Source: a virus (lineage: Duplodnaviria; Heunggongvirae; Uroviricota; Caudoviricetes). From it: a stretch of 36,836 nt of DNA. The notes below the pieces were generated by a model. It was given only the letters and a program-made list of their open reading frames with translations. It did not search any database and was not told where the DNA came from. The translations under genes were made by a program, and so were the position numbers. Below, one piece after another: positions 804 to 35,828 of the stretch. Within the stretch, counting starts at the first letter, position 1. Each line of letters starts with the position of its first letter. The DNA lies in IMG/VR virus record IMGVR_UViG_2585428015_000012. One strand, given 5' to 3'.

Positions 804-2417
804 ATGAGTCAGAAATACCTCATTCGCATCGCAGAGCTGGAAAGGTTGCTCTCTGAGCAGGCTGAAGCCCTCCGTCAGAAAGACCAGCAACTGAGTCTGG
901 TTGAAGAGACGGAAGCCTTCCTGCGCTCTGCACTGACACGTGCCGAAGAAAAGATCGAAGAAGATGAACGGGAAATAGAACATCTGCGGGCTCAGATAGA
1001 AAAACTGCGCCGGATGCTGTTCGGTACCCGTTCTGAAAAACTGCGTCGTGAAGTTGAACTGGCTGAGGCTCTGCTGAAACAACGTGAACAGGACAGCGAT
1101 CGTTACAGTGGGCGGGAAGACGATCCTCAGGTTCCCCGCCAGTTGCGACAGTCGCGCCATCGTCGTCCGTTACCGGCACACCTTCCCCGTGAAATACACC
1201 GCCTGGAGCCAGAAGAAAGCTGTTGCCCGGAGTGTGGCGGTGAGCTGGATTATCTGGGGGAAGTCAGCGCTGAACAGCTGGAACTGGTGAGCAGTGCCCT
1301 GAAAGTGATCCGCACAGAACGGGTAAAAAAAGCCTGTACAAAATGTGACTGTATTGTTGAAGCACCGGCGCCGTCCCGCCCGATAGAGCGTGGTATCGCG
1401 GGCCCCGGATTACTTGCCCGCGTGTTAACGGGAAAATACTGCGAACATCTGCCACTGTATCGTCAGAGTGAAATCTTTGCCCGCCAGGGTGTCGAACTGA
1501 GCCGGGCCTTACTCTCCAACTGGGTTGACGCGTGCTGCCAGTTAATGACACCGGTGAATGATGCCCTGTACCGTTATGTAATGAACACCCGCAAGGTTCA
1601 CACTGATGACACACCGGTAAAGGTACTGGCACCGGGTCAGAAAAAGGCGAAAACAGGGCGTATCTGGACGTATGTCCGGGATGATCGCAATGTGGGTTCG
1701 TCATCTCCTCCAGCGGTCTGGTTCGCGTACTCGCCGAACCGGCAGGGGAAACACCCGGAGCAACACCTCCGCCCCTTCCGGGGTATCCTGCAGGCGGATG
1801 CGTTCACAGGTTACGACAGGTTGTTCAGTGCAGAACGTGAAGGTGGTGCACTGACAGAAGTTGCGTGCTGGGCCCATGCCCGGCGAAAAATCCACGATGT
1901 ATACATCAGCAGCAAAAGTGCGACGGCAGAAGAAGCCCTGAAGCGAATCAGTGAACTGTACGCCATCGAGGATGAAATACGGGGATTACCGGAGTCAGAG
2001 CGTCTTGCCGTCAGGCAGCAGCGAAGCAAAGTGTTACTGACGTCGCTGCATGAATGGATGGTGGAGAAGAATGGTACGCTGTCGAAAAAATCCAGACTGG
2101 GCGAAGCGTTCAGCTATGTACTGAATCAGTGGGATGCCCTCTGTTATTACAGTGATGACGGTCTGGCGGAGGCGGATAATAATGCTGCGGAAAGAGCGCT
2201 TCGTGCAGTCTGTCTCGGAAAGAAAAACTTTATGTTCTTTGGCAGCGATCACGGCGGCGAGCGTGGAGCACTGTTGTACGGGCTGATCGGCACCTGCCGT
2301 CTGAACGGTATCGATCCGGAAGCGTATCTGCGCCATATCCTGAGCGTACTGCCGGAATGGCCTTCCAACCGAGTTGACGAACTCCTGCCATGGAACGTAG
2401 TACTCACCAATAAATAA
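804..2417 (+). CDS. IS66-family transposase (TnpC)
   Basis: 537 aa; N-terminal coiled-coil/leucine-zipper-like region, CPECGGEL...CTKCDC zinc-finger-like motif, acidic-residue-containing core; third ORF of the IS66 triplet. Confidence 0.85.
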   Translation: MSQKYLIRIAELERLLSEQAEALRQKDQQLSLVEETEAFLRSALTRAEEKIEEDEREIEHLRAQIEKLRRMLFGTRSEKLRREVELAEALLKQREQDSDRYSGREDDPQVPRQLRQSRHRRPLPAHLPREIHRLEPEESCCPECGGELDYLGEVSAEQLELVSSALKVIRTERVKKACTKCDCIVEAPAPSRPIERGIAGPGLLARVLTGKYCEHLPLYRQSEIFARQGVELSRALLSNWVDACCQLMTPVNDALYRYVMNTRKVHTDDTPVKVLAPGQKKAKTGRIWTYVRDDRNVGSSSPPAVWFAYSPNRQGKHPEQHLRPFRGILQADAFTGYDRLFSAEREGGALTEVACWAHARRKIHDVYISSKSATAEEALKRISELYAIEDEIRGLPESERLAVRQQRSKVLLTSLHEWMVEKNGTLSKKSRLGEAFSYVLNQWDALCYYSDDGLAEADNNAAERALRAVCLGKKNFMFFGSDHGGERGALLYGLIGTCRLNGIDPEAYLRHILSVLPEWPSNRVDELLPWNVVLTNK

Positions 2418-2447
2418 GCGTCAATACGGTGCTCCGTTGACGCTTAC
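2418..2447. repeat. IS66 right terminal inverted repeat (contains an internal dyad GCGTCAA..TTGACGC)
   Basis: Sequence read directly; begins immediately after the transposase stop and ends with ...CGCTTAC (GTAAGCG on the other strand). Confidence 0.6.
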
Positions 2448-3535
2448 AAATTACCTGCGTAATGAGAAAAACTTGTACCATCCTGCCGTGAAAGCAGATC
2501 GCGCCCTGTATCCACTTTTCGCCCGTCGTCCCATCCACGGATAAACTCACCGCGTAAATCGGGAAGACGGAGGGTCGGGTAGACTCTGGCCAGAACAGGA
2601 TATTGTTCTTTTGTAAAGGCGCGCCCGTCGCACTTTAACCAGCCTGCTGGCGGTGTGGCAGTGGGCCACGGAACAGGTACACCAACGGGCAGCGCCGAGC
2701 CTTCCCCCAAACCAAGGTAATTGAGGACATCTTTTATACTGCCCTTAGCGATAATAGCGCGACCAATAGCTGTAAGGGTTGCCAGCTCTGCGCGGTCTGC
2801 TCCGGTAAAATAAGGCAACCGATCTGCTGCAGTGGCAAGTCCTGCCAGAGCAGTGAGCGTGGCATCTGCCGGTTGTTTTCCGTTTGCCAGATCGTATGCA
2901 GCCTTGACCGCTTTCGGTGTGGCGGCCAGTATTTCAGACGTGCTGTTGATGGCACTGCTCAATTGTACGGTGCCTTTTGCCGTCAGCGAGGCAGCAGGCA
3001 CTCCCGTTATCTGACTCCACGGGTGAGTGTGGCTGACGGGCGCCTTGCCGGCTGCAAGGTCGTATGCAGCCTTGACCGCCTTCGGCGTGGCAGCCTCAGT
3101 TTCTGATTGACTGTCCGTGGCGCTGCTCAGTTGTACGGTGCCTTTTGCCGTCAGTGAAGCCGCAGGCACTCCCGTTATCTGACTCCACGGGTGAGTGTGG
3201 CTGGCAGGCGCCTTGCCGGCTGCCAGGTCGTATGCAGCCTTGACCGCTTTTGGTGTGGCGGCCAGCGTTTCAGAGGTGCTGTTGGTGGCACTGCTCAGTT
3301 GGGTGAACCCCTTAGCTGTCAGTGTCGCGTCCGGGTGGTTACGGGAACGTACGTGTTCAGCCAGTGACTGTGCGGCTTCCTCCGTTTTCTTCTTCAGCCA
3401 TTTCGTCCTGTTTGCCAGTTGCCGGGGGGCTCGATTTGATATCCCGTCTGCACCACCCAGAACCGGATCTGATGTCTCCAGTTGATAGATATTTTCTTCC
3501 CACTTTTCTGTTTCATTCAGGTTTCCCATAATCAA
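2444..3535 (-). CDS. Phage tail fibre protein, 3'-truncated by the IS66 insertion (stop codon lies inside the IS terminal repeat)
   Basis: 363 aa ORF with three tandem ~56 aa repeats (TAKG.VQLSSAT.S.SET.AATPKAVKAAYDLA) and a C-terminal segment matching the phage tail-collar pattern (GWLKCDG...LPDLRGEFIRGW) that breaks off where the IS begins. Confidence 0.75.
   Translation of the reverse strand: MIMGNLNETEKWEENIYQLETSDPVLGGADGISNRAPRQLANRTKWLKKKTEEAAQSLAEHVRSRNHPDATLTAKGFTQLSSATNSTSETLAATPKAVKAAYDLAAGKAPASHTHPWSQITGVPAASLTAKGTVQLSSATDSQSETEAATPKAVKAAYDLAAGKAPVSHTHPWSQITGVPAASLTAKGTVQLSSAINSTSEILAATPKAVKAAYDLANGKQPADATLTALAGLATAADRLPYFTGADRAELATLTAIGRAIIAKGSIKDVLNYLGLGEGSALPVGVPVPWPTATPPAGWLKCDGRAFTKEQYPVLARVYPTLRLPDLRGEFIRGWDDGRKVDTGRDLLSRQDGTSFSHYAGNL
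2860..3340. repeat. Three tandem ~168 bp in-frame repeats inside the tail fibre gene
   Basis: Motif cgtatgcagccttgaccgc recurs at 2893, 3061 and 3229 (168 bp spacing); flanking sequence also repeats. Confidence 0.8.
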
Positions 3536-4110
3536 CTGCTCCCGTGGTTATAACTGCCATCATGGATGGCGGTATTGTTATAGCGAATGGCCACAGACTG
3601 ATACTCCAGGCTGGCCAGATGGCAGCGGGCCGGTGCAAATGCAGCCAGCGTCTGACGCAGCATCGCGGCCTGATCGTTAGTAATGGGCTGTTTCAGAATA
3701 ACGCGATAAACTGCCCAGGCGGCTGCATCTCCATGAACAAACAGTCCGTTATAGCTGCGATTGCCGTCGTAACTGAGACGACCTGTGCCTTCAATCAGAT
3801 CCACTTCACCAAAGCCAAAACGGCGGATAACTTCCCGGATTGACCACGGCGTCCCTTTATACCGGTGCAGTTCGATGGCTGCTTTTATAAGCATGCGGCG
3901 AACATCGTCCGATTCCGCCAGCTCCCAGCCATCGCCAGACAGTGAGAACTGCTCGCCCAGCCATGGCAGCGCGGAACTGTCGACGATATCGACGAGAAAG
4001 ACCATCAGTACGCTCAGGTCGATGTTATCCAGCCGTCCTGCCAGTCTTCCCAGCGTCCTGAGACTGATATCACCCTCAAGCGGTGGCGGGAGTTGTAATG
4101 GCTCAGTCAT
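3532..4110 (-). CDS. Phage tail protein (Mu gp48 / P2 gpI-like)
   Basis: 192 aa ORF between baseplate J-like gene and tail fibre, overlapping both; position and size match the Mu/P2 tail protein I. Confidence 0.65.
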   Translation of the reverse strand: MTEPLQLPPPLEGDISLRTLGRLAGRLDNIDLSVLMVFLVDIVDSSALPWLGEQFSLSGDGWELAESDDVRRMLIKAAIELHRYKGTPWSIREVIRRFGFGEVDLIEGTGRLSYDGNRSYNGLFVHGDAAAWAVYRVILKQPITNDQAAMLRQTLAAFAPARCHLASLEYQSVAIRYNNTAIHDGSYNHGSS

Positions 4111-5206
4111 CAGACACTCCAGTCATGTTAAGAGTGATTGCCGTACAGTTTGCCCATTCGTTTTCTGCCACCACCCGCAGTGCCGGTGTCACCAGTTCAA
4201 CCTGGTACACCCCGGAAACGGACAATGCACTGATAATCTGGCTGGGGACAATATCGCGCCCCAGCGTGGCGGCACGTGATGCCACCCAGTTCTGTATGGC
4301 GCTGTTAGCGGCATCTTTTACAGACCTGGCATCCTGATCACGATAGATCGTAATCCTGGCTTCAATGGTGTAATCCACCTTCACTGGTGTTTTAGCCCGC
4401 ACTGTATCAGTGAGTGGCCTGACTTTCTCATCAGAGCAGAAACTCTCTACCAGCGTGAGAACACCGCCGTCCGGCAGACCGGTACTGAGCAGCGGATACA
4501 GATCTACGGTCCCGGGAACCGGGGAAAGCACAGCAACATCGACAATGTTGGGATGGGCCTGCATGGCATGAAAGCGGTATGCGCCACGGCTTCCGGCATT
4601 GGTGAATGACTCCGGGGCCAGCCTGATACGCTCCCGGAGCCTGTCATCGTCTTCCTGTTCTGAACCGCCGGAACTGGCCATCAGATTGCTCACCAGCAGG
4701 TTAACGTTATCAATCTCATCGAGTAACTGACTGACCTGCGCAGGTTGCCAGCCGTTACCAGCGGTACCGGGTTCGGTACAGGTGGCCGTGACATTGACCA
4801 GCAGCAATCCGGCCTTCAGTACCACATCTGTATCGGTGGCAAAAATAACGCTGTCGGAAGCGCTGACGCGGGTGCCTGCCGGGATCAGCACATCAATGGC
4901 CAGTGCCTCATCTACGGAGAACTGGAGCGTGGTGGTGGCAGGCTGCGCGGCAAGACGGTATACACCGACCAGTTCACCGAGGTAATCAATCATCGGCTCA
5001 CGGGCAAAGGCGACCAGATTCTGCTTTGCTGCCTCCTGTACCGCAACCCTGACCAGCATTTCGCGATAGGCCCACAGATCAATCAGCAGACGTTCTGCCT
5101 GTGCCGGGTACAGCGTTTTGCCGGTATCCGCTTCATACTTCGCAATCATTTCTGCCGTGATTTTGTCGGCATCGCGTTCAATAAAATCGGGTTCTGTCAG
5201 CGCCAT
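4103..5206 (-). CDS. Baseplate J-like protein (Mu gp47-like)
   Basis: 367 aa ORF in the conserved baseplate position; overlapping neighbours. Confidence 0.75.
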   Translation of the reverse strand: MALTEPDFIERDADKITAEMIAKYEADTGKTLYPAQAERLLIDLWAYREMLVRVAVQEAAKQNLVAFAREPMIDYLGELVGVYRLAAQPATTTLQFSVDEALAIDVLIPAGTRVSASDSVIFATDTDVVLKAGLLLVNVTATCTEPGTAGNGWQPAQVSQLLDEIDNVNLLVSNLMASSGGSEQEDDDRLRERIRLAPESFTNAGSRGAYRFHAMQAHPNIVDVAVLSPVPGTVDLYPLLSTGLPDGGVLTLVESFCSDEKVRPLTDTVRAKTPVKVDYTIEARITIYRDQDARSVKDAANSAIQNWVASRAATLGRDIVPSQIISALSVSGVYQVELVTPALRVVAENEWANCTAITLNMTGVSDD

Positions 5207-24909: not shown

Positions 24910-25260
24910 TTAAAGCCCCATCGCAACAGCCAGGCAGACCGCTGCAACAATCAGTGCACGGCGGATTAACGCAGCAGAAAACACCAGGTGAAGGCCGGTC
25001 TGTACCGGGAAACGCCCTTCAGCCATCAGCCTGTCGTCATGTTTCAGGTACTGACCGGGACGGGCTTTGGGGAAGAGCGAACGGTCAAGCCAGTAACCCA
25101 GCACTGCTGCCAGCGTGATGAGTGCCAGCTTGTAGATCACAACAGGCAGCTGCTGTGGTGAGACCAGAGCGATGGTGCCCAGCAACAGCACTGAGGTCAG
25201 CAGCCAGCCGCTGAGGCGAGGTTTTTTAACAGGGGGAATGAATTTTTTCAGGTTTTTCAT
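24910..25260 (-). CDS. Two-transmembrane-helix small membrane protein, first gene of the lysis cassette (holin candidate)
   Basis: Start at ATG 25260 with AAGGAG 7 nt upstream; two hydrophobic segments; directly precedes the endolysin. Confidence 0.55.
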   Translation of the reverse strand: MKNLKKFIPPVKKPRLSGWLLTSVLLLGTIALVSPQQLPVVIYKLALITLAAVLGYWLDRSLFPKARPGQYLKHDDRLMAEGRFPVQTGLHLVFSAALIRRALIVAAVCLAVAMGL

Positions 25261-25390
25261 GTGTGTCTCCTTATCTGGTGGAGACAGCATCACAAATACA
25301 GGGCGCGAAGGATTTTAAAGCGCGTTAAGAGAGCCGGGGATACGGGATGTGCAGGATAAACGATGAATTATTCACAGAGGAGAATACGAT
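25261..25390. promoter_or_regulatory. Divergent intergenic region between the late operon and the plus-strand cargo genes
   Basis: 130 bp non-coding gap flanked by outward-facing genes, both with strong ribosome-binding sites; inverted repeat GTCTCC(N9)GGAGAC overlaps the ribosome-binding site of the lysis gene. Confidence 0.4.
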
Positions 25391-26119
25391 ATGACGCAGA
25401 CACTGAATCCGGTCATCACTGTCACCGTGTCCGGTCCTGTGGGCAGCGGTAAAAGTTACGTACTGGCGCGAATAGAGGAAGTGGTGAAACAGGAATTCGG
25501 AAACAGCGTCATTGTCGACGCCGCAGACGTGGACGGTGAGCGCCGTATGAGTGGGGATGATCTGAGCACATGGCAGAAACCACGGGCTGGCACAGTGATC
25601 AGGCTGGAGGAATACACGGGACAGGGCCTGTTGTCATACGGCGAGGAGCGTATCTGTCGGACGAATGAGCTGCTGGATGTTATATGCCCCACGGGCCGGC
25701 AACCCTGGATACTGCCCGATGCACTGCATGCCACCATTGCGGCACTGATGACAGTTTACGATCAGGAGCTGCTCATGAAGGAGTTACGTAAACTCACTGG
25801 TCAGTCAACAGAATGTTGTTCGTCCCCGAAGTACGGCAAACAGGAACACATCCCGATTAACCAGCCTCCCCGGTTCTTCGACGAATACCTTCTGACACCG
25901 GAAAATAAAGCTGAGCATGAAGAGATCAAAGCGGCGTTGTTCCGGGAAATCAGGAAGATTGCTGAAATGCAACTGGAGGGCGGGCTGGACAGAGTGATGG
26001 CGAGAGGAGAATGGGCATCGCTGTTTGAAAGAGTTTCCCCGGAATTACTTCCCCTCGCACTGGCTATCGGGATTATGCAGACAGCGGATAAACCTCACTT
26101 ACGTTCATTAAACACGTAA
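25391..26119 (+). CDS. P-loop (Walker A) protein of unknown function
   Basis: 242 aa; GAGGAG ribosome-binding site; Walker A motif VSGPVGSGKS at residues ~14-23, followed by IVDAAD; no confident family assignment. Confidence 0.6.
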   Translation: MTQTLNPVITVTVSGPVGSGKSYVLARIEEVVKQEFGNSVIVDAADVDGERRMSGDDLSTWQKPRAGTVIRLEEYTGQGLLSYGEERICRTNELLDVICPTGRQPWILPDALHATIAALMTVYDQELLMKELRKLTGQSTECCSSPKYGKQEHIPINQPPRFFDEYLLTPENKAEHEEIKAALFREIRKIAEMQLEGGLDRVMARGEWASLFERVSPELLPLALAIGIMQTADKPHLRSLNT

Positions 26120-26499
26120 CGCATAATCCGGGATACGCATTCAGCGATGACTGCATTTTCACCGGTTTTTACTGCATCCAGAAGTGACTCTTTAAATGGT
26201 ACGGGCCGGGGCTGCAGAAAGGTCGGCATGGCATTGAGCAGACAGAGCGTTTTTTCCGTGAGGACGACATCAGCCGCTCCCACAGCCAGCAACTGAGAGT
26301 AACGAATATAGCTGTTATCCCGAAGCCATATCAGCGTATCAATAAAACACCGGCACTTTTTCTGGTCGTGATCAACCTGGTCCGGGATATCGAAAAAACC
26401 AGAATAAATCAAAACCTGAGGTGCCGGATGCGTGTTCAGTAATCGGCAGAATATTTTGCCGGTGAGTACATAAAAATCATCATTTAAGGAGTGCATCAT
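26095..26499 (-). CDS. Hypothetical protein, convergent with the P-loop gene
   Basis: 134 aa ORF filling the 378 bp gap between the P-loop gene and the next plus-strand gene; 3' end overlaps the P-loop gene by 25 nt; weak ribosome-binding site. Confidence 0.4.
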   Translation of the reverse strand: MMHSLNDDFYVLTGKIFCRLLNTHPAPQVLIYSGFFDIPDQVDHDQKKCRCFIDTLIWLRDNSYIRYSQLLAVGAADVVLTEKTLCLLNAMPTFLQPRPVPFKESLLDAVKTGENAVIAECVSRIMRYVFNERK

Positions 26500-26713
26500 G
26501 AATCCCCGATTAACGTTAACAGAACATCAGCGCCGTGCTGAAGCAGTGAACAATGTTCTGGAAGATATTATCCGGTTATACCGCGGAGAACTGAGTGTCT
26601 GTCGTGCCGCTTTTCATTTTCAGGGAATACAAAAGCAGTTTGATACTTCTGTTTTTGCAGAAGGTATTACTTATGCCCTGGACCGGATAAGGTCAGAAAA
26701 TCGCCCCGGATAA
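26498..26713 (+). CDS. Hypothetical small protein (71 aa)
   Basis: ATG with AAGGAG 7 nt upstream; start is back-to-back with the minus-strand ORF start. Confidence 0.5.
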   Translation: MNPRLTLTEHQRRAEAVNNVLEDIIRLYRGELSVCRAAFHFQGIQKQFDTSVFAEGITYALDRIRSENRPG

Positions 26714-26768
26714 TCCCTAAACCACATTAACAGAAATCCCGCCATCCCTGCCGCATCATGAAAGAACG

Positions 26769-26798
26769 ACCAGCCCGGCACCCGAAAGCCGGGCTGGT
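26769..26798. other. Perfect 10 bp-stem hairpin (ACCAGCCCGG-N10-CCGGGCTGGT) between the 71 aa gene and dam
   Basis: Read directly from sequence; no U-tract on the plus strand, a partial one on the minus strand. Confidence 0.4.
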
Positions 26799-26903
26799 CA
26801 TCGCCCCACAGGAATGCGCTGTGAGCCGACCAAGGTTCAGTCAGTCTCGCGAGACCTGACCAGACTGCCATATTTTTTAATAATTGTAAAAGGCTTGCAG
26901 ATT

Positions 26904-27668
26904 ATGAAAATGCAGACATTACCCATCGTGCCGTGGATTGGTGGCAAACGCCGCCTTGCAAAACACATTCTGCCGCTGTTTCCGGCGCATGAATGTTATG
27001 TGGAGCCGTTTTGTGGGGCAGCAGCGCTCTATTTTCTTAAGACACCCGGCAAGATCGAAGTCATCAATGATATCAACGGTGAACTGGTGAATCTGTACCG
27101 GGTGGTAAAGCATCACCTGGAAGAATTTGTCCGCCAGTTCAAATGGGCGCTGGTCAGCCGTCAGATCTACAAATGGCTGCAGATCACCCCGGAAGAAACA
27201 CTGACGGATATCCAGCGTGCGGCACGGTTCTACTACCTTCAGAAGCAGGCGTTTGGCGGCAAGGTGGCAGAGCACAGCTTCGGTACCTCCACCACATCCC
27301 CGCCACGCTTCAACCTGCTACGTATTGAAGAAGAACTGTCAGCGGCACACCTGCGGCTTTCCAGAACAGTCATAGAACACATGGACTGGCAACAGTGCAT
27401 TGAGCGTTATGATCGTCCGCACACGCTGTTCTACTGCGACCCACCGTACCTGGGTACGGAAGGCTATGGTGTGGATTTTCCTGAAGGGAACTACTCGCGG
27501 CTGGCAGAGCTGGCCCGGTGCATCAGAGGAAAAATGATAATTTCGGTGAACGACATCCCGCAGATGCGCGAGGTGTTCACTGGACTGAACATACAGACAG
27601 TGAATATCAACTACAGTCTGGCGGGTAAACCCACGCCGCGCCGTGAACTGCTAATCTGCAACTTCTGA
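26904..27668 (+). CDS. DNA adenine methyltransferase (Dam family, N6-adenine)
   Basis: 254 aa; N-terminal AdoMet-binding region (IVPWIGGKRRL, EPFCGAAAL) and catalytic DPPY motif (FYCDPPYLGTEGY). Confidence 0.85.
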   Translation: MKMQTLPIVPWIGGKRRLAKHILPLFPAHECYVEPFCGAAALYFLKTPGKIEVINDINGELVNLYRVVKHHLEEFVRQFKWALVSRQIYKWLQITPEETLTDIQRAARFYYLQKQAFGGKVAEHSFGTSTTSPPRFNLLRIEEELSAAHLRLSRTVIEHMDWQQCIERYDRPHTLFYCDPPYLGTEGYGVDFPEGNYSRLAELARCIRGKMIISVNDIPQMREVFTGLNIQTVNINYSLAGKPTPRRELLICNF

Positions 27669-27675
27669 AACAAAA

Positions 27676-27698
27676 CCGGAAAGCACAATGCTTTCCGG
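27676..27698 (-). terminator. Intrinsic terminator hairpin (9 bp stem CCGGAAAGC-ACAAT-GCTTTCCGG) shared by convergent dam and repressor genes
   Basis: Perfect stem; on the minus strand it is followed by TTTTGTTTC, so it is best placed to terminate the repressor transcript. Confidence 0.5.
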
Positions 27699-27784
27699 TA
27701 AACCAAACAACTTCCACTATGTCACTGGCGATGTTTTCTGAAAGCATCCAGATCAACCACCTGTCCTTTGTGTCCGGGTCAGTA

Positions 27785-28141
27785 TCAGCCTGCGATTTTT
27801 CCTGGTTTTGGCTGAGTATAGAATCGCCCAATCTCAAGAAATGAGCGTTGTTGGTCTGGTGTCATGTCGTCAAAAGTATCTATTAGTTTTTGTTTTTCTG
27901 GGGAAATTTGATTCTGGTTTCTAGTCATACCATCTGTGCTCATTCCAGTGAGCAACCAATTTACATCAACATTAAACTCTTGATGCATCTTTAACAGAAA
28001 CTCCCCTCCAGGCATCGCCTTTCCATTTTCAATCTGACTGATACCACCATTAGAAATACCTAAACGAGCTGCAAATTCTCTCTGGTTCAACCCTGCTTTC
28101 TTCCTCACAGAAATAACGCGCTCTCCTATATCTTTGCTCAT
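27785..28141 (-). CDS. XRE-family HTH repressor (phage immunity repressor, c-like)
   Basis: 118 aa; HTH motif LNQREFAARLGISNGGISQIENG; transcribed divergently from the early operon across an operator-like palindrome; AT-rich. Confidence 0.75.
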   Translation of the reverse strand: MSKDIGERVISVRKKAGLNQREFAARLGISNGGISQIENGKAMPGGEFLLKMHQEFNVDVNWLLTGMSTDGMTRNQNQISPEKQKLIDTFDDMTPDQQRSFLEIGRFYTQPKPGKIAG

Positions 28142-28164
28142 AAAAGTGAATCTCTATCTTGATA

Positions 28165-28182
28165 TGCTCATAATTATGAGCA
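28165..28182. promoter_or_regulatory. Perfect 18 bp palindrome TGCTCATAATTATGAGCA in the repressor/ner divergent region (candidate operator)
   Basis: Read directly; lies between the repressor start (28141) and the ner-like start (28235). Confidence 0.5.
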
Positions 28183-28234
28183 ATAATCTAACACATATAA
28201 GGCAAACATCATTGCATCAACAAAGGAGACAACG

Positions 28235-28423
28235 ATGACTGCAGAACAAGTCAAAGCTCTCTTCCGCCAGCGCGGGATCACTTTCACCCGCTGGGCAGAA
28301 GAAAACGGCTACAACCGCAATGAGGTATACCGCGTTCTCAACGGGCAGACCAAAGCCCGTTACGGTAAATCCCATGAAATCGCCGTGAAGTTGGGACTGA
28401 AATCAACAGCTCAGGCGGCCTAA
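28235..28423 (+). CDS. Ner-like small DNA-binding protein
   Basis: 62 aa; AAGGAG ribosome-binding site; pattern ALFRQRGITFTRWAEENGY...GKSHEIAVKLGL resembles the Ner/Nlp HTH family; first gene of the early operon next to the repressor, as in Mu. Confidence 0.6.
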   Translation: MTAEQVKALFRQRGITFTRWAEENGYNRNEVYRVLNGQTKARYGKSHEIAVKLGLKSTAQAA

Positions 28424-28794: not shown

Positions 28795-29715
28795 ATGGGA
28801 CGTACCAAATCACCGATTAACACTGAACTGAACGCCGATGTACCGCTGTCGGATGATCTCAACGTCAGCCTGAATGCCATGACACAGCATCGCATGGAGA
28901 TCATGCAGCAGTTTGGTGATGGACTGCCTTATGAACGTGAACGCATCGTTCACGAAGCACGTTTTTATATGGCGCAGAGTGCTGAATCTATGTTGGAAGC
29001 GGGTAAGCGGCTGATCATCTTAAAAGAAAATGAACCGCATGGTGATTTCACAAATATTCTGGAAAACGACCTCGGATTAGCACCACAGGTAGCTCGTCGC
29101 ATGATGCAGGCCAGCGTGAAATTTCTCGGCAATGGAGATGAACAGCCAAAACGCTCAGCGCTGAGCGTTTTGGGAAAAACCAAGTTATATGAACTGATGG
29201 TTCTGGATGACGAAGAACTCGACGCATTAGCTGATGGTGGAACCGTCGCCGGTGCAACGCTTGATGATATTGATCGCATGACCAGCCGCGAACTGAAGGC
29301 CGCCCTGCGTGAAGCGCGCGAAACCAACGCAGCTCAGCAACAGGTGCTTGCCGGAAAGGACGAAAAAATCAACGAACTGGCCACAAAACTGGAGAAGAAA
29401 TCGCGCCTGCAACCTCCGCCGCCAGACGAAGAACTGAAAAAATTGCGGGCGGAAGTGACGGCATTAGCGGTTGAGGCCGAATCGGCTATCGCCGTCCGGC
29501 TGTCCAGTGTTTTTGAGACCCTGTGTGAATACTGCACCAAAAACATGATCGATACCCCCAGAGATTTCATGGCCGGTCTGGTCTGCCAGATTGAACGCAG
29601 TGTTCATGCATTACGTGAGACGTTTGACCTTGAGGCCGCTCCATCGGGTAACGATGCCCCCGCCTGGCTGACCGAACCGGAACCTGAAATCAACCGACCG
29701 GAGGATATGCAGTAA
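28795..29715 (+). CDS. Hypothetical early protein (306 aa, coiled-coil-rich; DUF3102-like by recollection)
   Basis: TAAGGAG ribosome-binding site; acidic/coiled-coil composition; between ner-like gene and transposase. Confidence 0.45.
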   Translation: MGRTKSPINTELNADVPLSDDLNVSLNAMTQHRMEIMQQFGDGLPYERERIVHEARFYMAQSAESMLEAGKRLIILKENEPHGDFTNILENDLGLAPQVARRMMQASVKFLGNGDEQPKRSALSVLGKTKLYELMVLDDEELDALADGGTVAGATLDDIDRMTSRELKAALREARETNAAQQQVLAGKDEKINELATKLEKKSRLQPPPPDEELKKLRAEVTALAVEAESAIAVRLSSVFETLCEYCTKNMIDTPRDFMAGLVCQIERSVHALRETFDLEAAPSGNDAPAWLTEPEPEINRPEDMQ

Positions 29716-30032
29716 TGAATACGAATAACACACAAAATACCCTGATGGACAGCCCGGAGGCACTGGGGCACGCACTGTGTAATCTGCTGCCGGAGATGGT
29801 GCAGGGTTTCCGCGTGGTGACCCCTTCCGGTGAAATCTGCGTACCCGCACAGGAGACGCACCCGTTTGTACTGACGATGGAGGTGATGCTGATGCAGCAG
29901 ATAAGACGTCTGCAGAATCAGTCAGCATTACGCCCGGTAGTTGCACCGCAACCGGTAAATACCGTGGTGAAAACCTGCGATGGCGAAACACTGTGCGACC
30001 TCGCCAGAAAAATTGCCGCCAGAATCGGATAA
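29715..30032 (+). CDS. Hypothetical early protein (105 aa)
   Basis: TAATG-coupled to the preceding gene. Confidence 0.4.
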   Translation: MNTNNTQNTLMDSPEALGHALCNLLPEMVQGFRVVTPSGEICVPAQETHPFVLTMEVMLMQQIRRLQNQSALRPVVAPQPVNTVVKTCDGETLCDLARKIAARIG

Positions 30033-30047
30033 CAGGGAAGACAAGCT

Positions 30048-31817
30048 ATGACCCCGGCACTGACTGAAAAACTGGTTGAAACAGCCCGCGCGGCACGTGA
30101 CGCGGGGCATGGTAAACGCGGTGCAATATACGACGCTGCCTGTGCTGAACTTGGCATGTCCCGCGCCACTCTGCTGCGCAGGCTGAAGGAGGTATCTGTG
30201 ACTGATAAACGCAAAAAACGCGCCGATGCCGGGCGCAGCGCCCTGACCCGCGACGAAGCCGCGCTGATATCTGCCACACTGCGTGAGGCCACCCGCAAGA
30301 ACGGTAAGCGTCTCTATTCCATCGCAGATGCAGTGGAAACCCTGCGGGCTAACGGCTTTATCACCGCAGGCAGAACAGATGAAACCACCAGTGAGTTTTT
30401 CCCGTTGTCTGAAGATGCCATCAGCCGTGCTCTGCGTAACTATGGCCTGCACCCGGAACAACTGGATGCCCCTGCACCACATACCGAAGTGGCCAGTCTG
30501 CATCCCAATCATGTCTGGCAGATTGACGCCTCACTCTGCACGCTTTACTACCTGAGCAATGGACATAAAGGGCTGCAGGTGATGGACAGCGCGAAGTTCT
30601 ACAAGAACAAGCCCGCTAACCTTGCCCGTATCGCCAGTGACCGCGTGTGGAGTTACGAGATTACCGACCATGCCAGCGGCTGGATTTACGTTGAGTATGT
30701 GACGGGCGCGGAATCAGGTGAGAACCTGTGTTCTGTGCTTATCAACGCCATGCAGGAGCGTGGCGGCGCAGACGTGCTGCACGGCGTGCCGAAAATACTC
30801 TATCTCGACCCCGGCTCGGCAAACACCGCGGGTATGACGAAAAACATGTGCCGCTCACTGGGCATCGACCTGATAGCGCACAAGCCGCATAACGCCCGCG
30901 CCACCGGACAGGTGGAAAAGGCGCGTGACATTATCGAACGCAAGCTGGAGCCGGGTCTGAAGTTCCGGCCGGTTCACAGTCTGGAAGAACTCAACGCGCT
31001 GGCCGCGAAATGGCGCAGCCACTTTAACGCCACGGCTGTTCACAGCCGCCACGGTAAAACCCGCACGGATATCTGGCTGAAGATTACTGCTGAGCAGCTG
31101 AAAAAAGCGCCTTCCGTTGAGGTATGTCGTGAACTGGCTGTGGCGGCACCAGAACTCCGCAAAGTCACGCCAAAACTTCGTGTCTCGTTCCGGGGCACTG
31201 AATTTGACGTATCAACGGTACCGGGCGTACTGGTTGGTGAAAAACTGATGATTACCCGTAACCCATGGCGCAGCGATGTGGCACAGGTGGTTCTGACCGG
31301 TGAGGACGGCCACGAGACGTTCTTCCTGGTCGAAGAGGTCAGAAAGAACGAGTTTGGCTTTGCTGAAGGCGCGGCGGTATTTGGCGAAAGTTACAAAGCC
31401 CTGCCGGAAACCCCGGCACAGATGGCGGCAAAAGAAACCGAAGCGCTGGTTACCGGTACAGACAACGCCGCAGATGCAGCCGCCGCACGCAAGGCGAAGG
31501 CGCTGCCGTTCGGCGGGCGGCTTGACCCGTATAAACATATCGACGACACCACACTTCCGGCCTATATGCCGAAGCGTGGTCAGGCCTCTGACGTACGCGG
31601 GCCGCGCACTGAACAACGTCCCATGACTCATGTGGAGGCCGCGAAAGCCCTGCGCGATAAGTTCAGCGCCGACGGCCTTACCTGGACGCCGGAACATTAC
31701 CGCCAGTTAACGGCACAGTACCCGGACGGCGTACCGGAAGCCGCACTGGATGAAGTCATGGCCACGCTGACCACACCGGCCCGCAGCAGTGTTATCAGCA
31801 TTGTTAACGGCAACTGA
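30048..31817 (+). CDS. Phage DDE transposase (Mu A functional analogue; integrase-core fold with N-terminal HTH)
   Basis: 589 aa; N-terminal HTH (MSRATLLRRLKEV); central core with conserved acidic residues (WQIDAS..., LYLDPGSANT..., QVEKARDIIE); followed by an AAA+ ATPase gene as in transposable phages. Confidence 0.85.
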   Translation: MTPALTEKLVETARAARDAGHGKRGAIYDAACAELGMSRATLLRRLKEVSVTDKRKKRADAGRSALTRDEAALISATLREATRKNGKRLYSIADAVETLRANGFITAGRTDETTSEFFPLSEDAISRALRNYGLHPEQLDAPAPHTEVASLHPNHVWQIDASLCTLYYLSNGHKGLQVMDSAKFYKNKPANLARIASDRVWSYEITDHASGWIYVEYVTGAESGENLCSVLINAMQERGGADVLHGVPKILYLDPGSANTAGMTKNMCRSLGIDLIAHKPHNARATGQVEKARDIIERKLEPGLKFRPVHSLEELNALAAKWRSHFNATAVHSRHGKTRTDIWLKITAEQLKKAPSVEVCRELAVAAPELRKVTPKLRVSFRGTEFDVSTVPGVLVGEKLMITRNPWRSDVAQVVLTGEDGHETFFLVEEVRKNEFGFAEGAAVFGESYKALPETPAQMAAKETEALVTGTDNAADAAAARKAKALPFGGRLDPYKHIDDTTLPAYMPKRGQASDVRGPRTEQRPMTHVEAAKALRDKFSADGLTWTPEHYRQLTAQYPDGVPEAALDEVMATLTTPARSSVISIVNGN

Positions 31818-31827
31818 GGAGGGAAAC

Positions 31828-32994
31828 ATGCTGGTACTGAAGCAGCAACTGAAAGAGGCCCGTATTCCACAGGCGGTGGTGGCGAGAGCTGTCGATGTTT
31901 CTGAGGCCACGCTGGCCCAGATTGTGAATCATAACGCGTGGCCCCGCACCAGCCCCGGAGAAGTGCGCCGGCGTCTTGCGTCCTGGCTGGAAAGTCAGGG
32001 GATTGATACAACGAAGAGTTTTGATGCTGTACAGGGCGCGGCCACGCCCCGTACAGCGGGTACCACAGATAAAACGAGCCTCAGTGAGGAAGAGAATATG
32101 TTACTCAAAAAACAGGTGTTATTTCCAGCAACCAAAAAAGCGTTTGGTCTTTTCCGTGACCCGTTCGCCGACGAAGCCATGCAGGGTTCTGATGATGTGT
32201 TCACCACCCCGGACATTCGCTACGTGCGTGAGGCGCTGTACCAGACAGCCCGTCATGGTGGGTTTATGGCCGTCATCGGTGAGTCCGGTGCGGGTAAATC
32301 CACGCTGCGCCGCGACCTGACTGAACGTATCAACCGCGAGAATGCGCCGGTAATTGTTATCGAGCCATACATCATCGCTATGGAAGACAACGATGTGAAA
32401 GGGAAAACCCTGAAGGCAGCAGCTATTGCCGAAGCCATTATCAGTACCATCGCACCACTGGAAAGCATCAGACGCAGTCAGGACGCCCGTTTTCGCCAGT
32501 TGCATCGCGTCCTGAAAGACAGCAGCCAGGCGGGGTTCAGCCACGTTCTGGTGATTGAGGAGGCCCACAGTCTGCCCATTCCGACACTGAAACACCTCAA
32601 ACGCTTTTTTGAGCTGGAGTCCGGTTTCAAAAAACTGCTGTCCATCGTGCTGATTGGCCAGCCGGAACTGGCGACAAAACTGTCTGAACGCAATATGGAA
32701 GTCCGTGAAGTCGTTCAGCGCTGTGAGGTGGTCGAACTTCTGCCTCTGGACAATAACCTTGAAGAATTTCTGACGTTCAAACTGCAACGGGCCGGTAAAC
32801 AGCTGACGGACATTATGGACGCCGGTGCAGTGGATGCCATACGTGCCCGCCTGAGCAATCCGGGAAGTCACCGTAAAAATATGGTCAGCCTGCTGTATCC
32901 GCTGGCCGTCAGTAACCTGGTAATAGCCGCCATGAATCTGGCCGCTGAAATCGGGGTTCCACAGGTCAACGCTGACGTTGTCAAAGGGGTTTAA
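31828..32994 (+). CDS. Transposition AAA+ ATPase (Mu B functional analogue)
   Basis: Start at ATG 31828 with GAGGAGGG upstream; Walker A GESGAGKST, Walker B-like VLVIEEAH; N-terminal HTH-like segment. Confidence 0.8.
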   Translation: MLVLKQQLKEARIPQAVVARAVDVSEATLAQIVNHNAWPRTSPGEVRRRLASWLESQGIDTTKSFDAVQGAATPRTAGTTDKTSLSEEENMLLKKQVLFPATKKAFGLFRDPFADEAMQGSDDVFTTPDIRYVREALYQTARHGGFMAVIGESGAGKSTLRRDLTERINRENAPVIVIEPYIIAMEDNDVKGKTLKAAAIAEAIISTIAPLESIRRSQDARFRQLHRVLKDSSQAGFSHVLVIEEAHSLPIPTLKHLKRFFELESGFKKLLSIVLIGQPELATKLSERNMEVREVVQRCEVVELLPLDNNLEEFLTFKLQRAGKQLTDIMDAGAVDAIRARLSNPGSHRKNMVSLLYPLAVSNLVIAAMNLAAEIGVPQVNADVVKGV

Positions 32995-32996
32995 TA

Positions 32997-33266
32997 ATGA
33001 AATCCACCACAGGTATCAACCAGCAAATCAGCAAAGTGCAGTCAGCCATTATGGCGCTTAAGGCGACGAACACGGATGTACAAAGCATCACCATCAGGGG
33101 TAACAAACCTGTCATCCGCGTTTCCCGGAGTGCGCATTGCATGCGCATGCTTGAGCAGGGAAAGGCCTGTTATCTGTATACCGGACATGACCACAGGGGA
33201 TATTTCCGTCAGGGCGTTTTCGAACTGCACGGCTGTCGCGTCGTGTGGCCGGAATCTTTGTGGTAA
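32997..33266 (+). CDS. Hypothetical small early protein (89 aa)
   Basis: Coupled to the B-like gene stop (TAATAATG). Confidence 0.45.
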   Translation: MKSTTGINQQISKVQSAIMALKATNTDVQSITIRGNKPVIRVSRSAHCMRMLEQGKACYLYTGHDHRGYFRQGVFELHGCRVVWPESLW

Positions 33267-33293
33267 TCAGCACAACTGGAGAAATCATAAAAA

Positions 33294-33824
33294 ATGGCAA
33301 AAAGTACAAAAGGTGCAAAACGTATCAAGGCCGCAGCAGCACTCTGGGTGCCGGGGACACGTGAAGAGGTCATTGAGGGAATCAGACTACTCGGTGACGC
33401 ACAACGTGAACTGGTCAGGGCTGAAACAGAAATGAATGACGCCATTGGCGATATCACCGCACGTTATGCCCCGCTCACCGAGAGCCTGAAAAAACGCATG
33501 GCCGAACTGCAGTCCGGTATTCAGACATGGTGTGAGGCACACCGTGATGAACTGACCGGCAACGGGAAGGTGAAGTTCGCTAACCTCACCACCGGCGAGG
33601 TGCAGTGGCGAAACCGTCCGCCATCAGTCAGTATCCGTGGGGCGGATAATGTTATTGAATTACTGAGACGTCTGGGGCTTGAGCGCTTTATTCGTGTAAA
33701 AGAGGAAATAAATAAAGACGCTATCCTGAATGAAAAAGAGGCCGTGAAAAATATTCCCGGTATTTCCATTAAAAGCGACATTGAGGATTTTTCAATAATT
33801 CCTTTTGAGCAGGATGTGCAGTAA
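33294..33824 (+). CDS. gam: Gam-like host-nuclease inhibitor (Mu Gam family)
   Basis: 176 aa; near-colinear resemblance to Mu Gam (MAK..KRIK.AAA, ETEMNDAI, WCEA.RDELT..GKVK.ANL.TG.V.WR.RPPSVSIRG, GISIKSDIEDFSIIPFEQ). Confidence 0.85.
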   Translation: MAKSTKGAKRIKAAAALWVPGTREEVIEGIRLLGDAQRELVRAETEMNDAIGDITARYAPLTESLKKRMAELQSGIQTWCEAHRDELTGNGKVKFANLTTGEVQWRNRPPSVSIRGADNVIELLRRLGLERFIRVKEEINKDAILNEKEAVKNIPGISIKSDIEDFSIIPFEQDVQ

Positions 33825-33921
33825 ACACACCACGTTAATTATTTAATAAAAACATTTTCTTTTTTATTCCGACGTCAGCGCCGCGGGCTTCTGCACGCCG
33901 GAAACAGAGGAGAATTAAATC

Positions 33922-34116
33922 ATGATATTTAAATGTATTCAGTGCGAGAGGGATATAACAGCCCTGCGTTTTCACAGCGCCATCGCCGTGATGTCCGGTA
34001 AATACCACATCCCTGCGGTACGCGTCACCCTGGTCTGCCCGTACTGCAGCCAGCATTTTTCGGCAGACGTGCCCGTCATGGAATTCTCCCGCCCTGACAG
34101 GGAGGACTCGCAATGA
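33922..34116 (+). CDS. Small zinc-ribbon protein (CxxC...CxxC)
   Basis: 64 aa; GAGGAG ribosome-binding site; Cys pairs at 5/8 and 39/42. Confidence 0.45.
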   Translation: MIFKCIQCERDITALRFHSAIAVMSGKYHIPAVRVTLVCPYCSQHFSADVPVMEFSRPDREDSQ

Positions 34117-34385
34117 TTACCCCACAGGAAGCACGACAGCGCACCCGAACCCTTGTTGAACACTATGTCAACGAGTGTGAATGCCGCGACCTCACCGATG
34201 TGAAGCACGTCCTGACGGCGCTAATCAGCATGGCCACACAGGCCATTGTGGCGACCAACGGAAAGGAGGCTGCCCTGCAGGTACTGATGAACACACTCAC
34301 CCACACGGCAGAGCATGAGGTGCCGTACCGGATGGAAACCACTGCAGAAGGCGGCCTGCACATCACCGTCAGCCGGAAGCACTGA
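34113..34385 (+). CDS. Hypothetical small early protein (90 aa)
   Basis: GGAGG ribosome-binding site; ATGA coupling. Confidence 0.45.
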   Translation: MITPQEARQRTRTLVEHYVNECECRDLTDVKHVLTALISMATQAIVATNGKEAALQVLMNTLTHTAEHEVPYRMETTAEGGLHITVSRKH

Positions 34386-34394
34386 GGGCGCGGC

Positions 34395-34691
34395 ATGACA
34401 CGAAACACCGAACTCACCCGCACCGCCCTCTACCGTCTGGCCCTGCAGCGTTTCGGGCCGGACGCACAGGCCCTGAAACTGGCAGAAGAGGCCGCTGAAC
34501 TGGCGGCCAGTGCCGCCCGCAACCTGAACGGACAGGGCAGCGAAAGTGACCTCGCGGCAGAGCTGGCAGACGTGGAAATCATGACAGAGCAACTGCGCCT
34601 TCAGGGGATGGACCGGCTGATTGACTTCCACAAACAGAAAAAACTGGAACGTCTGGCTGCACGACTGGGCGTGATTTACACGAACGAGTAA
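34395..34691 (+). CDS. MazG-like nucleotide pyrophosphohydrolase domain protein (tentative)
   Basis: 98 aa all-alpha protein with paired acidic motifs (EEAAELAA...AAELADVEIM...L) resembling small MazG/HisE-type NTP-PPases. Confidence 0.45.
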   Translation: MTRNTELTRTALYRLALQRFGPDAQALKLAEEAAELAASAARNLNGQGSESDLAAELADVEIMTEQLRLQGMDRLIDFHKQKKLERLAARLGVIYTNE

Positions 34692-34705
34692 CCGGGAGGC
34701 ATTCA

Positions 34706-34921
34706 ATGGCTGACATACTCAGGGAAATCACCGCATGGACACTGATTCTTACTGGCCTGGCGACATGCCTCAGTGCGGGGGCAGCCCTGGCTGCCCTGCT
34801 GATGCACATAACAACACAGTGGTTATGGGAAAAGCTTAAAGCAGCATACAGCCTGAAAGAGCTGTCCGACGCTGTCCGGGCATGGAAACGGCAGAAAAAT
34901 ACCGGAGATACAGAACAATGA
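34706..34921 (+). CDS. Small membrane protein (71 aa)
   Basis: GGGAGG ribosome-binding site; hydrophobic segment WTLILTGLATCLSAGAALAALLM. Confidence 0.45.
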   Translation: MADILREITAWTLILTGLATCLSAGAALAALLMHITTQWLWEKLKAAYSLKELSDAVRAWKRQKNTGDTEQ

Positions 34922-35601
34922 CAGACCAGAATAAACACATTGAGAAACTGAAAAAGTTGCTGGCGCTGGCCGCATCCGGCAACCCGCACGAGGCCGCTCT
35001 GGCACTGCGCCGAGCCCGTAAACTGATGGATGTTCACGGCATCACACATTCCGACATTGCTATGAGTGATATTGATGAAACCATCAGTCACTACTGGCCG
35101 ACAGGCAGTCTCCGTCCACCGCGCTACATGCTGGGCCTGATGAACATCATCCGCGAGGTATTTGGTGTTAACTCCATCATTCACCCCGGCACGCATCCGT
35201 CTGTGGGGTTCTACGGCAACCGGGAACGTGCGGCACTGGCTGCATACACCTGGGAAGTGCTGGCCCGTCAGCTGAAAAAGGCGCGTCAGCAGTATATCAG
35301 TGCACAGAACAAAAGAATAAAAACCGCCACCCGCACCAGCCGTGGAGACCAGTTTGCCGAAGGCTGGGTGCTGGCCGTTATCAGTGAAATACAGTCCTTT
35401 GCCCTGACCGATGATGAGCGTGAACTGATGCAGCAGTGGCTGGAACATAAATACCCGCAGACGCAAACCACCAGGGCGCGTAAACCGGGAAGAAGCCGCA
35501 ATGGCGACGCCTCGCGCTATGCGGGGTTTCGTGAAGGGCAGAACGTCAGACTGCACCGCCCGGTCAGTGGGCAGGAACAACAGAAACTGGAGGCCAGATG
35601 A
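34918..35601 (+). CDS. Hypothetical early protein (DUF2786-like by recollection)
   Basis: Start at ATG 34918 (ATGA overlap with preceding gene, GGAG upstream); 227 aa. Confidence 0.45.
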   Translation: MTDQNKHIEKLKKLLALAASGNPHEAALALRRARKLMDVHGITHSDIAMSDIDETISHYWPTGSLRPPRYMLGLMNIIREVFGVNSIIHPGTHPSVGFYGNRERAALAAYTWEVLARQLKKARQQYISAQNKRIKTATRTSRGDQFAEGWVLAVISEIQSFALTDDERELMQQWLEHKYPQTQTTRARKPGRSRNGDASRYAGFREGQNVRLHRPVSGQEQQKLEAR

Positions 35602-35828
35602 TTACGCTATCAGGTAAAAGCCGGAAATTAAAAGCCTGCCGAATATCTGCCAGATACCTTTTTGCCCGCGCCTTTTTTAAGAACGTCAGGCCGGGGATCA
35701 CAATTGGTGTTATTGCCGGACGCGAACAGGTTGAAAAATACATGTCAGGTGCATGGTGGAATAACGACCCTGTCATTGCTGCCCGTAATATTCATATCGA
35801 ATGGGGAGGTATTCAGAATGACTACTGA
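35598..35828 (+). CDS. Hypothetical small protein (76 aa)
   Basis: ATGA-coupled ORF in the early operon. Confidence 0.4.
   Translation: MITLSGKSRKLKACRISARYLFARAFFKNVRPGITIGVIAGREQVEKYMSGAWWNNDPVIAARNIHIEWGGIQNDY

Follow-up and report, generated by a model that had tools for sequence, protein, structure and literature searches.

A solitary Dam-family methylase gene and a conserved upstream element in a BcepMu-like prophage of Escherichia coli

Which DNA sequence does a phage-borne adenine methylase of the Dam family modify, when is it made, and what does the phage gain from it? These questions are raised by the gene, designated dam here, that occupies positions 26904 to 27668 of the viral genome record IMGVR_UViG_2585428015_000012, the 36,836 nt of which were analyzed as a whole and are referred to as the window. 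The reading that we favor, with somewhat more confidence than doubt, is that dam encodes a solitary D12/Dam-family methylase of the alpha class, predicted to be active, which would be mom-like, i.e. silent in lysogens, expressed late and directed against restriction. The gene itself adds little, as orphan Dam-family methylases are common in phages and the exact protein has been published as M.EcoMIV. What the locus offers is a mobile cassette, in which the gene is linked to a covarying upstream structure; in some phages, this structure occupies a place for which only Com-type translational control had been known. Through it, the means by which transposable phages silence their DNA-modification functions in lysogens can be put to a concrete test. 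Roughly every eighth complete E. coli genome contains the prophage, pandemic ST131 being among the carriers, and the methylase is routinely annotated there as 'DNA adenine methylase' and implicitly read as GATC-specific. The sequence gives no warrant for GATC, and methylome and phage-therapy work should therefore treat the specificity as open.

The methylase gene and the prophage that carries it

The open reading frame (ORF) is, as judged from its translation and its relatives, a real gene of a D12/Dam-family N6-adenine methyltransferase. The protein matches the Pfam family PF02086 (D12 class N6-adenine methylase; E=6e-29, 102 bits vs. a cutoff of 22) and PHROG 56 (E=1.5e-100) and passes the NCBIfam model TIGR00571 ('Dam family') marginally (116.6 bits vs. 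a cutoff of 114.85). Its motifs follow the order of the alpha class, i.e. motif I for binding of S-adenosylmethionine (AdoMet), the target-recognition region and the catalytic DPPY motif. Pairwise comparison with 33 relatives yielded ratios of non-synonymous to synonymous substitution rates (dN/dS) of 0.04-0.14, which indicates purifying selection on the methylase protein. An earlier interpretation made from the DNA letters (subsequently designated the sequence-only reading) had proposed a phage-encoded Dam-family adenine methyltransferase with DPPY and AdoMet-binding motifs, and this description is borne out by the three profile matches and by the motifs at aa 179-182 and aa 34-44, respectively.

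The window is, by sequence comparison, a BcepMu-like transposable prophage (Bcepmuvirus). Over the 4 kb tested, its DNA is 100% identical to that of Escherichia phage PhiKM, a member of Bcepmuvirus, and E. coli ST131 has an identical prophage at the aroA/ycaL site. Of 5,426 complete E. coli genomes, 636 (~12%) contained the element when searched with a 6-kb probe that surrounds dam, 383 of them at an identity of at least 99%. The gene order parallels that of BcepMu: the leftward late arm comprises tail genes, which are P2-like, as well as head and lysis genes including the holin gene at 24910-25293, and the rightward early arm encodes a gp16-family protein (TIGR04111), an rve transposase, an ExeA/MuB-like protein, Gam, GemA and Mor. 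These features agree with the earlier assignment to a transposable phage. The dam gene sits between the late and the early arm, divergent from the lysis operon and convergent with the gene of an HTH_3/CI-type repressor candidate, which in turn is divergent from the gp16-family gene. The convergence of dam with an immunity repressor gene, also noticed earlier, thereby stands.

Position and orientation of dam are kept in 17 of 17 enterobacterial BcepMu-like viral contigs and in the ~17 species-level genome loci examined. Both flanks vary among these relatives, i.e. the ORFs that separate the dam leader from the lysis promoter are confined to the closest ones, and the immunity module has been swapped repeatedly. 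Searches of the ORFs flanking dam with Pfam, NCBIfam and PADLOC returned no nuclease or defense match, although hidden Markov models (HMMs) can miss novel endonucleases, and no conserved partner gene of dam was found across 160 loci. The lack of such matches together with the varying neighbors argues that the enzyme is solitary, as far as profile methods reach, and upholds the earlier statement that no cognate restriction endonuclease gene is adjacent. BcepMu itself is devoid of dam; its gp18 was considered as a diverged dam gene and rejected, as the two are unrelated.

The gene is not new, having been described as M.EcoMIV, a name that REBASE uses as well. Forde et al. 2015 (PMC4659465) reported M.EcoMIV (EC958_1101) as an orphan Dam homolog with a PF02086 domain, which is encoded by prophage Phi2 of E. 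coli ST131 strain EC958 and is 100% identical to many E. coli annotations. The sole D12 methylase of the EC958 prophage is identical in sequence to the window protein (WP_000783854.1), and Phi2 occupies the same chromosomal site between aroA and ycaL. The tag EC958_1101 was assigned to the window gene by prophage, domain and description, which fit no other gene. The M.EcoMIV paper contains neither a placement among BcepMu-like phages, nor a comparison of DNA-reading residues, nor a description of the upstream element. In the identical prophages, RefSeq gives WP_000783854.1 the same coordinates as the ORF considered here, whereas the PhiKM GenBank record begins dam 90 nt earlier at the in-frame ATG 26814. 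The latter start was rejected, as it is absent in several relatives and 7- and 12-nt indels destroy the frame. ATG 26904 and its AAAGG Shine-Dalgarno (SD) sequence at 26889-26893 are invariant across the relatives compared.

The structured element upstream of dam

Conservation of the ~150 nt upstream of dam (26756-26903) exceeds that of the coding sequence. To assess covariation, 32 distinct sequences (Enterobacterales, Betaproteobacteria and others) were aligned with MAFFT, and the result supports a domain of three helices designated P0, H1 and H2 (model R1). In these helices 91.9% of the alignment cells are paired, as compared to 25-36% when the partners are slid; double changes occur in 14 of the 19 R1 base pairs, and none of 500 shuffles reached the observed score. 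Between R1 and the SD block lies a long palindromic hairpin, H3, whose sequence varies between phages but is always self-complementary.

The signals for the strand on which the element acts conflict, as the three-helix domain favors the minus strand and the SD-proximal pairings favor the plus strand. In P0 and H1, A.C combinations outnumber G.U combinations by 33 to 6, the folding energy of R1 is better by 9.5 kcal/mol on average for the minus-strand RNA, which is favored in 29 of 32 sequences, and on this strand the domain ends in a U-rich tract. The pairings of the ribosome-binding region include G.U pairs that are valid on the plus strand only, but these pairings lack covariation.

A covariance model built on the three-helix domain found R1 as a single copy in the window. 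Full-length matches upstream of dam or com-dam were obtained at 81 plus 28 further loci, including the group of Burkholderia phage phi1026b and Pseudomonas phage B3, in which R1 overlaps the annotated mini-ORFs 45/46. No match was present in BcepMu or upstream of com-mom of phage Mu. Conversely, when IMG/VR was scanned for the motif first, a dam homolog was located ~76 nt downstream in 103 of 115 usable matches. Scans against Rfam 15 with the gathering threshold as well as with an E-value threshold yielded no meaningful match. The element, present at over 100 loci in phages and prophages of Beta- and Gammaproteobacteria, seems to be undescribed.

Three roles are conceivable for R1: it may terminate leftward transcription and so keep antisense transcripts out of the upstream late genes, act as a cis-antisense RNA, or serve as a plus-strand leader that occludes the ribosome-binding site. 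The element is always linked to the first ORF of the module, be it com or dam, which argues that it regulates the methylase. The ~150-nt element would probably impose tight control, either through occlusion of the ribosome-binding site or through termination or antisense pairing of leftward transcripts. We tentatively propose, as a possibility, that the element represents an undescribed regulatory RNA module (a riboregulator in the leader or else a self-terminating cis-antisense RNA), which travels with the methylase, with or without Com, through Mu-, BcepMu-, B3- and lambda-like phages and silences an enzyme of relaxed, mom-like specificity, harmful when leaky, until late lytic growth.

Target specificity, expression and predicted role

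PF02086 includes enzymes of several specificities, and membership in this family therefore leaves the target sequence unsettled. The term 'Dam-type', which the sequence-only reading had used, holds in the family sense and is not supported in the sense of GATC-specific: the equivalog model of E. coli Dam (EcoDam; NF008152) gave 67 bits vs. a cutoff of 441, and two residues that read G:C base pairs are replaced. The window protein shares with EcoDam, T4 Dam and DpnM (2G1P, 1YFL, 2DPM) the fold family, the motif order, the AdoMet and DPPY motifs, an aromatic intercalator and the length of the recognition hairpin; however, it is only ~25-27% identical to DpnM and EcoDam, and four of the residues considered below are replaced.

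The residues by which EcoDam reads GATC (K9, Y119, N120, L122, R124, P134 and Y138 in EcoDam numbering) were compared on the basis of an HMMER alignment with high posterior probabilities and an hhalign alignment to a profile of 15 diverse subfamily members, both of which agreed in the hairpin. As a set, these residues are not preserved. Y119, N120, L122 and R124 correspond to F117, G118, K120 and A122 of the window protein, respectively; the R124 column is variable within the subfamily, position 120 is invariantly K or R, and K9 in the N-terminal loop aligns with P10, an invariant proline of the subfamily. Among the reading residues the intercalating aromatic is kept (Y119 to F117), as is the length of the hairpin, and Y138 finds a counterpart (F136) in the HMMER alignment. 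According to Horton et al. (PMC4417163), the contact of R124 with guanine is made first and discriminates most strongly, the first base pair is read by K9 and Y138, and Y119 intercalates; the EcoDam R124A variant methylates GATG and GATT faster than GATC, its discrimination at the fourth base pair being abolished. GATC specificity is not inferable from the window protein sequence, and its target is probably not read in the manner of EcoDam.

No characterized homolog that fixes the specificity was found in the literature on BcepMu, phiE125/phi1026b, Campylobacter CJIE1, ST131 and the Photorhabdus methylome, and a recognition site is known for no M.EcoMIV homolog of more than 65% identity (PMC4659465). 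A probable ortholog, as judged by size, domain and location and not by sequence comparison, is plu3449 of Photorhabdus luminescens TT01, a solitary gene of prophage P80 whose product of 256 aa has its InterPro Dam-type domain in common with the window protein. REBASE predicts a target for neither M.EcoMIV nor plu3449.

The most serious competing explanation, which we regard as unlikely though by no means negligible, holds that the protein is a genuine Dam with the GATC specificity of the host enzyme and that, as in T4, T1 and P1, it supplements methylation whenever host Dam lags behind replicative transposition. Such an enzyme would protect the progeny from MboI/DpnII-type restriction and MutH nicking and supply GATC methylation in Dam-less hosts. 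The TIGR00571 score just above the cutoff, the fact that the best solved relatives DpnM, EcoDam and T4 Dam are GATC enzymes, and the retained F117 and hairpin length all fit this explanation, and masking by host Dam would account for the absence of a new motif in strain EC958. It is at odds with the equivalog score and with the loss of K9, N120, L122 and R124, the last in a variable column, and also with REBASE, which does predict GATC for another Photorhabdus prophage methylase. Moreover, control of Com type and by a structured leader suggests a product that is harmful if leaky.

GATC content was considered as well. Observed/expected ratios are 0.55 for the window and 0.38 and 0.43 for the further enterobacterial carriers KP12 and Phi06_2974B, as compared to 1.02 for the dam-less Burkholderia phage BcepMu, and a stretch of 6,149 bp (29547-35696) in the early operon, which covers the genes for transposase A, the B-like ATPase and Gam as well as small ORFs, lacks GATC altogether, while 18.4 sites are expected. 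This depletion speaks against a GATC-specific enzyme but is weak evidence, since host Dam, SeqA or MutH may drive avoidance independently of the phage enzyme. The strongest tetranucleotide avoidance of the window concerns CTAG, which occurs once in 36.8 kb vs. 8 times expected from a second-order Markov model. Two homologs with 65-69% identity, from Yersinia pekkanenii (L130) and Ca. Pantoea bathycoeliae (L151), stand without the R1 leader and have in its place GATC clusters (four and two sites, respectively, within 60 nt) ~70 nt upstream of the gene. These clusters, which would suit a GATC-specific enzyme, are reminiscent of the Dam/OxyR-controlled mom promoter of Mu.

A hint at the role of the methylase comes from its relatives. 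The enzyme belongs, by sequence similarity, to a phage-borne subfamily typified by ORF48 of phage B3, to which it is 64% identical over the full length; further homologs are gp26 of phi1026b (65%) and proteins of Halomonas phage phiHAP-1 (62%) and an Acinetobacter phage (58%). Many IMG/VR homologs with 65-75% identity lie no more than a few bases from an end of their 36-41 kb contig and directly past the genes for baseplate, tail fiber and tail-fiber assembly, a place that by gene order is the mom slot of Mu-like phages. Other homologs in this identity range lie past holin/endolysin/Rz, and all are co-oriented with late genes. The same cassette thus serves siphoviruses, Mu-like and B3-like phages, which differ in replication and packaging. 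Coupling to Com and residence in the mom slot are features of these relatives, whereas the window gene is central, without Com and divergent from the lysis operon. Of note, some bacterial genomes contain several copies of dam-bearing elements, i.e. Methylophaga thiooxydans DMS010 on at least 8 scaffolds (L154-L169) and Paludibacterium denitrificans at 3 loci (L131/L142/L144), which is consistent with active transposable prophages.

Several known systems resemble the window locus in part. In B3, likewise a transposable phage, R1 is found just upstream of the module (L090, 1725-1812), but ORF48 overlaps the 3' end of the Com homolog ORF47 (PF10122, 77.7 bits) and the module is inside the tail operon. 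The phi1026b gp26/27 enzyme (phiE125 gp27 type) is also solitary and preceded by R1 (L060-L087); its carrier, however, is a lambda-like siphovirus, in which the gene lies past the lysis cassette and is reported to be expressed in lysogen culture. Mom of Mu represents a late, tightly controlled adenine modification of a transposable phage, and relatives of the window dam gene hold its slot or are coupled to Com; however, Mom is an unrelated protein that produces acetamido-adenine rather than methylated adenine, and the window leader is free of GATC/OxyR-type sites. Drozdz et al. (PMC3299994) found that Mu-like prophages without mom carry Dam-related adenine methylases in its place, among which Hia5 and Hin1523 are nearly non-specific. 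Hia5, Hin1523 and Nma1821 resemble the window protein in being Dam-related with DPPY and FxGxG motifs and a divergent target-recognition region; they take the place of mom and serve in anti-restriction, the role predicted for the window protein. They probably form a separate subfamily, as judged via B3 ORF48, which falls outside the 1000 closest matches of Hia5 and is described as a different lineage of predicted function (PMC3299994). Hia5 is just ~15% identical to MboIA, whereas the window protein matches DpnM directly (E=6.5e-17). Non-specific activity is therefore not transferable from Hia5 by homology.

The gene appears to be off in the lysogen. In the EC958 lysogen grown in lysogeny broth to mid-log phase, quantitative reverse transcription PCR (RT-qPCR) detected significantly lower transcription of M.EcoMIV than of the host dam gene, and no methylation motif was attributable to M.EcoMIV (PMC4659465). 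Likewise, plu3449 is transcribed at <0.001x the level of gyrB in all growth phases. The hairpin that follows dam has its T-run on the minus strand only (TTTGTTTCAG), while the plus strand continues with AAACCAAAC; by the usual rule, it therefore terminates the repressor transcript and not that of dam. In relatives with other immunity modules, unrelated hairpins follow dam, several of which have T-runs on the plus strand. The sequence-only reading had postulated a terminator shared by both genes and, on this ground, expression of dam in the lysogen. A single hairpin is indeed present between the two stop codons, but its T-run serves the repressor strand only, and convergent placement of dam and repressor gene does not imply co-expression. 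The minus-strand terminator and both sets of transcript data speak against expression in the lysogen, the sole contrary datum being that for phi1026b given below.

For the window gene we infer late timing, an anti-restriction role, relaxed or non-GATC specificity and control through the leader. The gene would be kept essentially off in the lysogen and be turned on with the late genes in lytic growth; in the basic BcepMu-like architecture its leader begins ~100 nt from the divergent holin gene, with the lysis promoter region in between. Replicated phage DNA would then be methylated before packaging, and the progeny would resist restriction in the next host, making the enzyme a functional analogue of Mom. 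Protection from host restriction, which had been among the earlier suggestions, is the most plausible role in light of the mom-like context of the relatives. A candidate motif common to the regions upstream of dam and of the late operon (TTAAC-N5-TTWAA) had 4 matches, a number reached in 8 of 100 shuffles and hence not significant.

Several points weigh against late, mom-like expression of an anti-restriction enzyme. For the window protein, activity is predicted and timing is deduced. No consistently conserved -10/-35 elements of a sigma-70 promoter for dam or a leftward RNA were found on either strand, and no Com is encoded in the window, as its only ORF with a CxxC...CxxC pattern (33922-34116) does not match PF10122. 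In RNA-seq of a phi1026b lysogen culture, the methylase gene reached 21,563 reads per kilobase per million (RPKM) vs. 1,000-4,700 RPKM for structural genes, and silence in lysogens may accordingly not be universal. As to specificity, the invariant K/R at position 120 could take over the guanine contact of R124. The enzymes of T4, T1, P1 and VT2, i.e. several phage Dam-family enzymes in Dam+ hosts, are GATC-specific, and the prior for GATC is therefore not small. If the window enzyme shared this specificity, host Dam would mask it, and the missing motif in EC958 would say nothing on expression.

We consider it improbable that dam is a lysogenic-conversion (moron) gene, which would be expressed in the lysogen, as the sequence-only reading had suggested, together with the repressor, and would alter host gene expression or vaccinate the chromosome. 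The gene does adjoin the repressor in the immunity/cargo region, the phi1026b homolog was described as an expressed moron, and in relatives dam comes with a terminator and forms a self-contained unit. However, the EC958 and plu3449 data speak against such expression, the hairpin terminates the repressor strand, convergence favors interference over co-expression, and in other phages the gene is inside late operons.

A role in regulation of the phage itself, through methylation-sensitive promoters, transposase binding or recognition of a packaging site as for P1 pac, is very improbable. Methylation does control transposition of IS10/Tn5 as well as Mu mom, and none of the enterobacterial BcepMu-like relatives examined is without the gene. 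BcepMu lacks it, however, which renders it dispensable for the life cycle of this type of phage, and the cassette is shared by phages with different modes of replication and packaging. Moreover, the leader of dam is free of GATC sites, as are the lysis promoter region and the operator region of the early arm (28142-28234), and the phage is GATC-depleted overall; the earlier idea of Dam-dependent promoter tuning as in Mu mom is thus not supported. That dam is the methylase half of an unrecognized restriction or defense pair with the unannotated ORFs at 25391-26713 is hardly credible: Type II endonucleases often escape detection by HMMs, PADLOC gave a weak match to PD-Lambda-5_B (E=5.8e-16) and one neighbor has a P-loop, but the three ORFs are restricted to the closest relatives, in the majority of BcepMu-like relatives dam directly adjoins the holin promoter, and none of the genes around the 160 loci is a conserved partner.

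Feature coordinates and minor observations

Positions of the features in and around dam are compiled in Table 1.

Table 1. Features of the dam locus, in window coordinates
Feature	Position	Strand	Basis or remark
Dam-family N6-adenine DNA methyltransferase gene, 254 aa + stop	26904..27668	+	Identical to M.EcoMIV / WP_000783854.1
Motif I (AdoMet binding), EPFCGAAALYF, aa 34-44	27003..27035	+	Aligned with EPFVGAGSVF of EcoDam; FxGxA variant, FxGxG-like
DNA-recognition hairpin region, aa 117-136, FGGKVAEHSFGTSTTSPPRF	27252..27311	+	Aligns with EcoDam 119-138 hairpin; N120/L122/R124 replaced by G/K/A
Motif IV, catalytic DPPY, aa 179-182	27438..27449	+	Read from translation
Conserved three-helix element, model R1 (P0, H1, H2)	26756..26842	-	Covariation; no Rfam family
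P0, helix of four base pairs	26764-26767 with 26835-26838
H1, GC hairpin	26770-26798		Followed by CGTTCTTTC on the minus strand
H2, CACAG/CTGTG	26807-26823		5 bp, 7-nt loop
H3, long palindromic hairpin between R1 and SD block	26839..26866	.	Sequence varies between phages, always self-complementary
SD AAAGG and conserved block GGCTTGCAG (26892-26900) abutting the ATG	26889..26900	+	Complementary to CTGTGAGCC at 26819-26827
Intrinsic terminator hairpin, 11 bp	27675..27699	-	6 nt past dam stop, 85 nt past repressor stop
HTH_3/CI-type repressor candidate, 118 aa	27785..28141	-	Profile matches; position of BcepMu gp17; convergent with dam
BcepMu gp16-family small DNA-binding protein (Ner position), first early-arm gene	28235..28423	+	TIGR04111, 97.4 bits
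Lineage-specific cargo, three ORFs between lysis promoter and dam leader	25391..26713	.	Absent in most relatives
Conserved motif CTCTTAACGCGCTTTAAAATCC upstream of holin/lysis operon, candidate late-activator site	25314..25351	-	Inference; degenerate copy at 26718-26741 adjoining dam leader, the repetition lacking statistical significance

The cargo comprises ORFs for a P-loop protein of 242 aa (25391-26119, plus strand), a protein of 134 aa (26095-26499, minus strand) and a protein of 71 aa (26498-26713, plus strand), which match only PHROGs of unknown function. It appears to be flanked by the candidate late-promoter motif and the degenerate copy thereof. The PhiKM record (PQ738613.1) lacks an entry for the HTH repressor gene; in its place, an ORF of 41 aa is called on the opposite strand (27719-27844). 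This record is circularly permuted, and its phage ends are separated by a fragment of a host gene annotated 'Fe2+ ABC transporter permease', an arrangement expected of a Mu-type virion with host DNA. The ORF at 33922-34116 (plus strand) belongs to the early arm; it encodes 64 aa with two CxxC pairs and is annotated as hypothetical in RefSeq.

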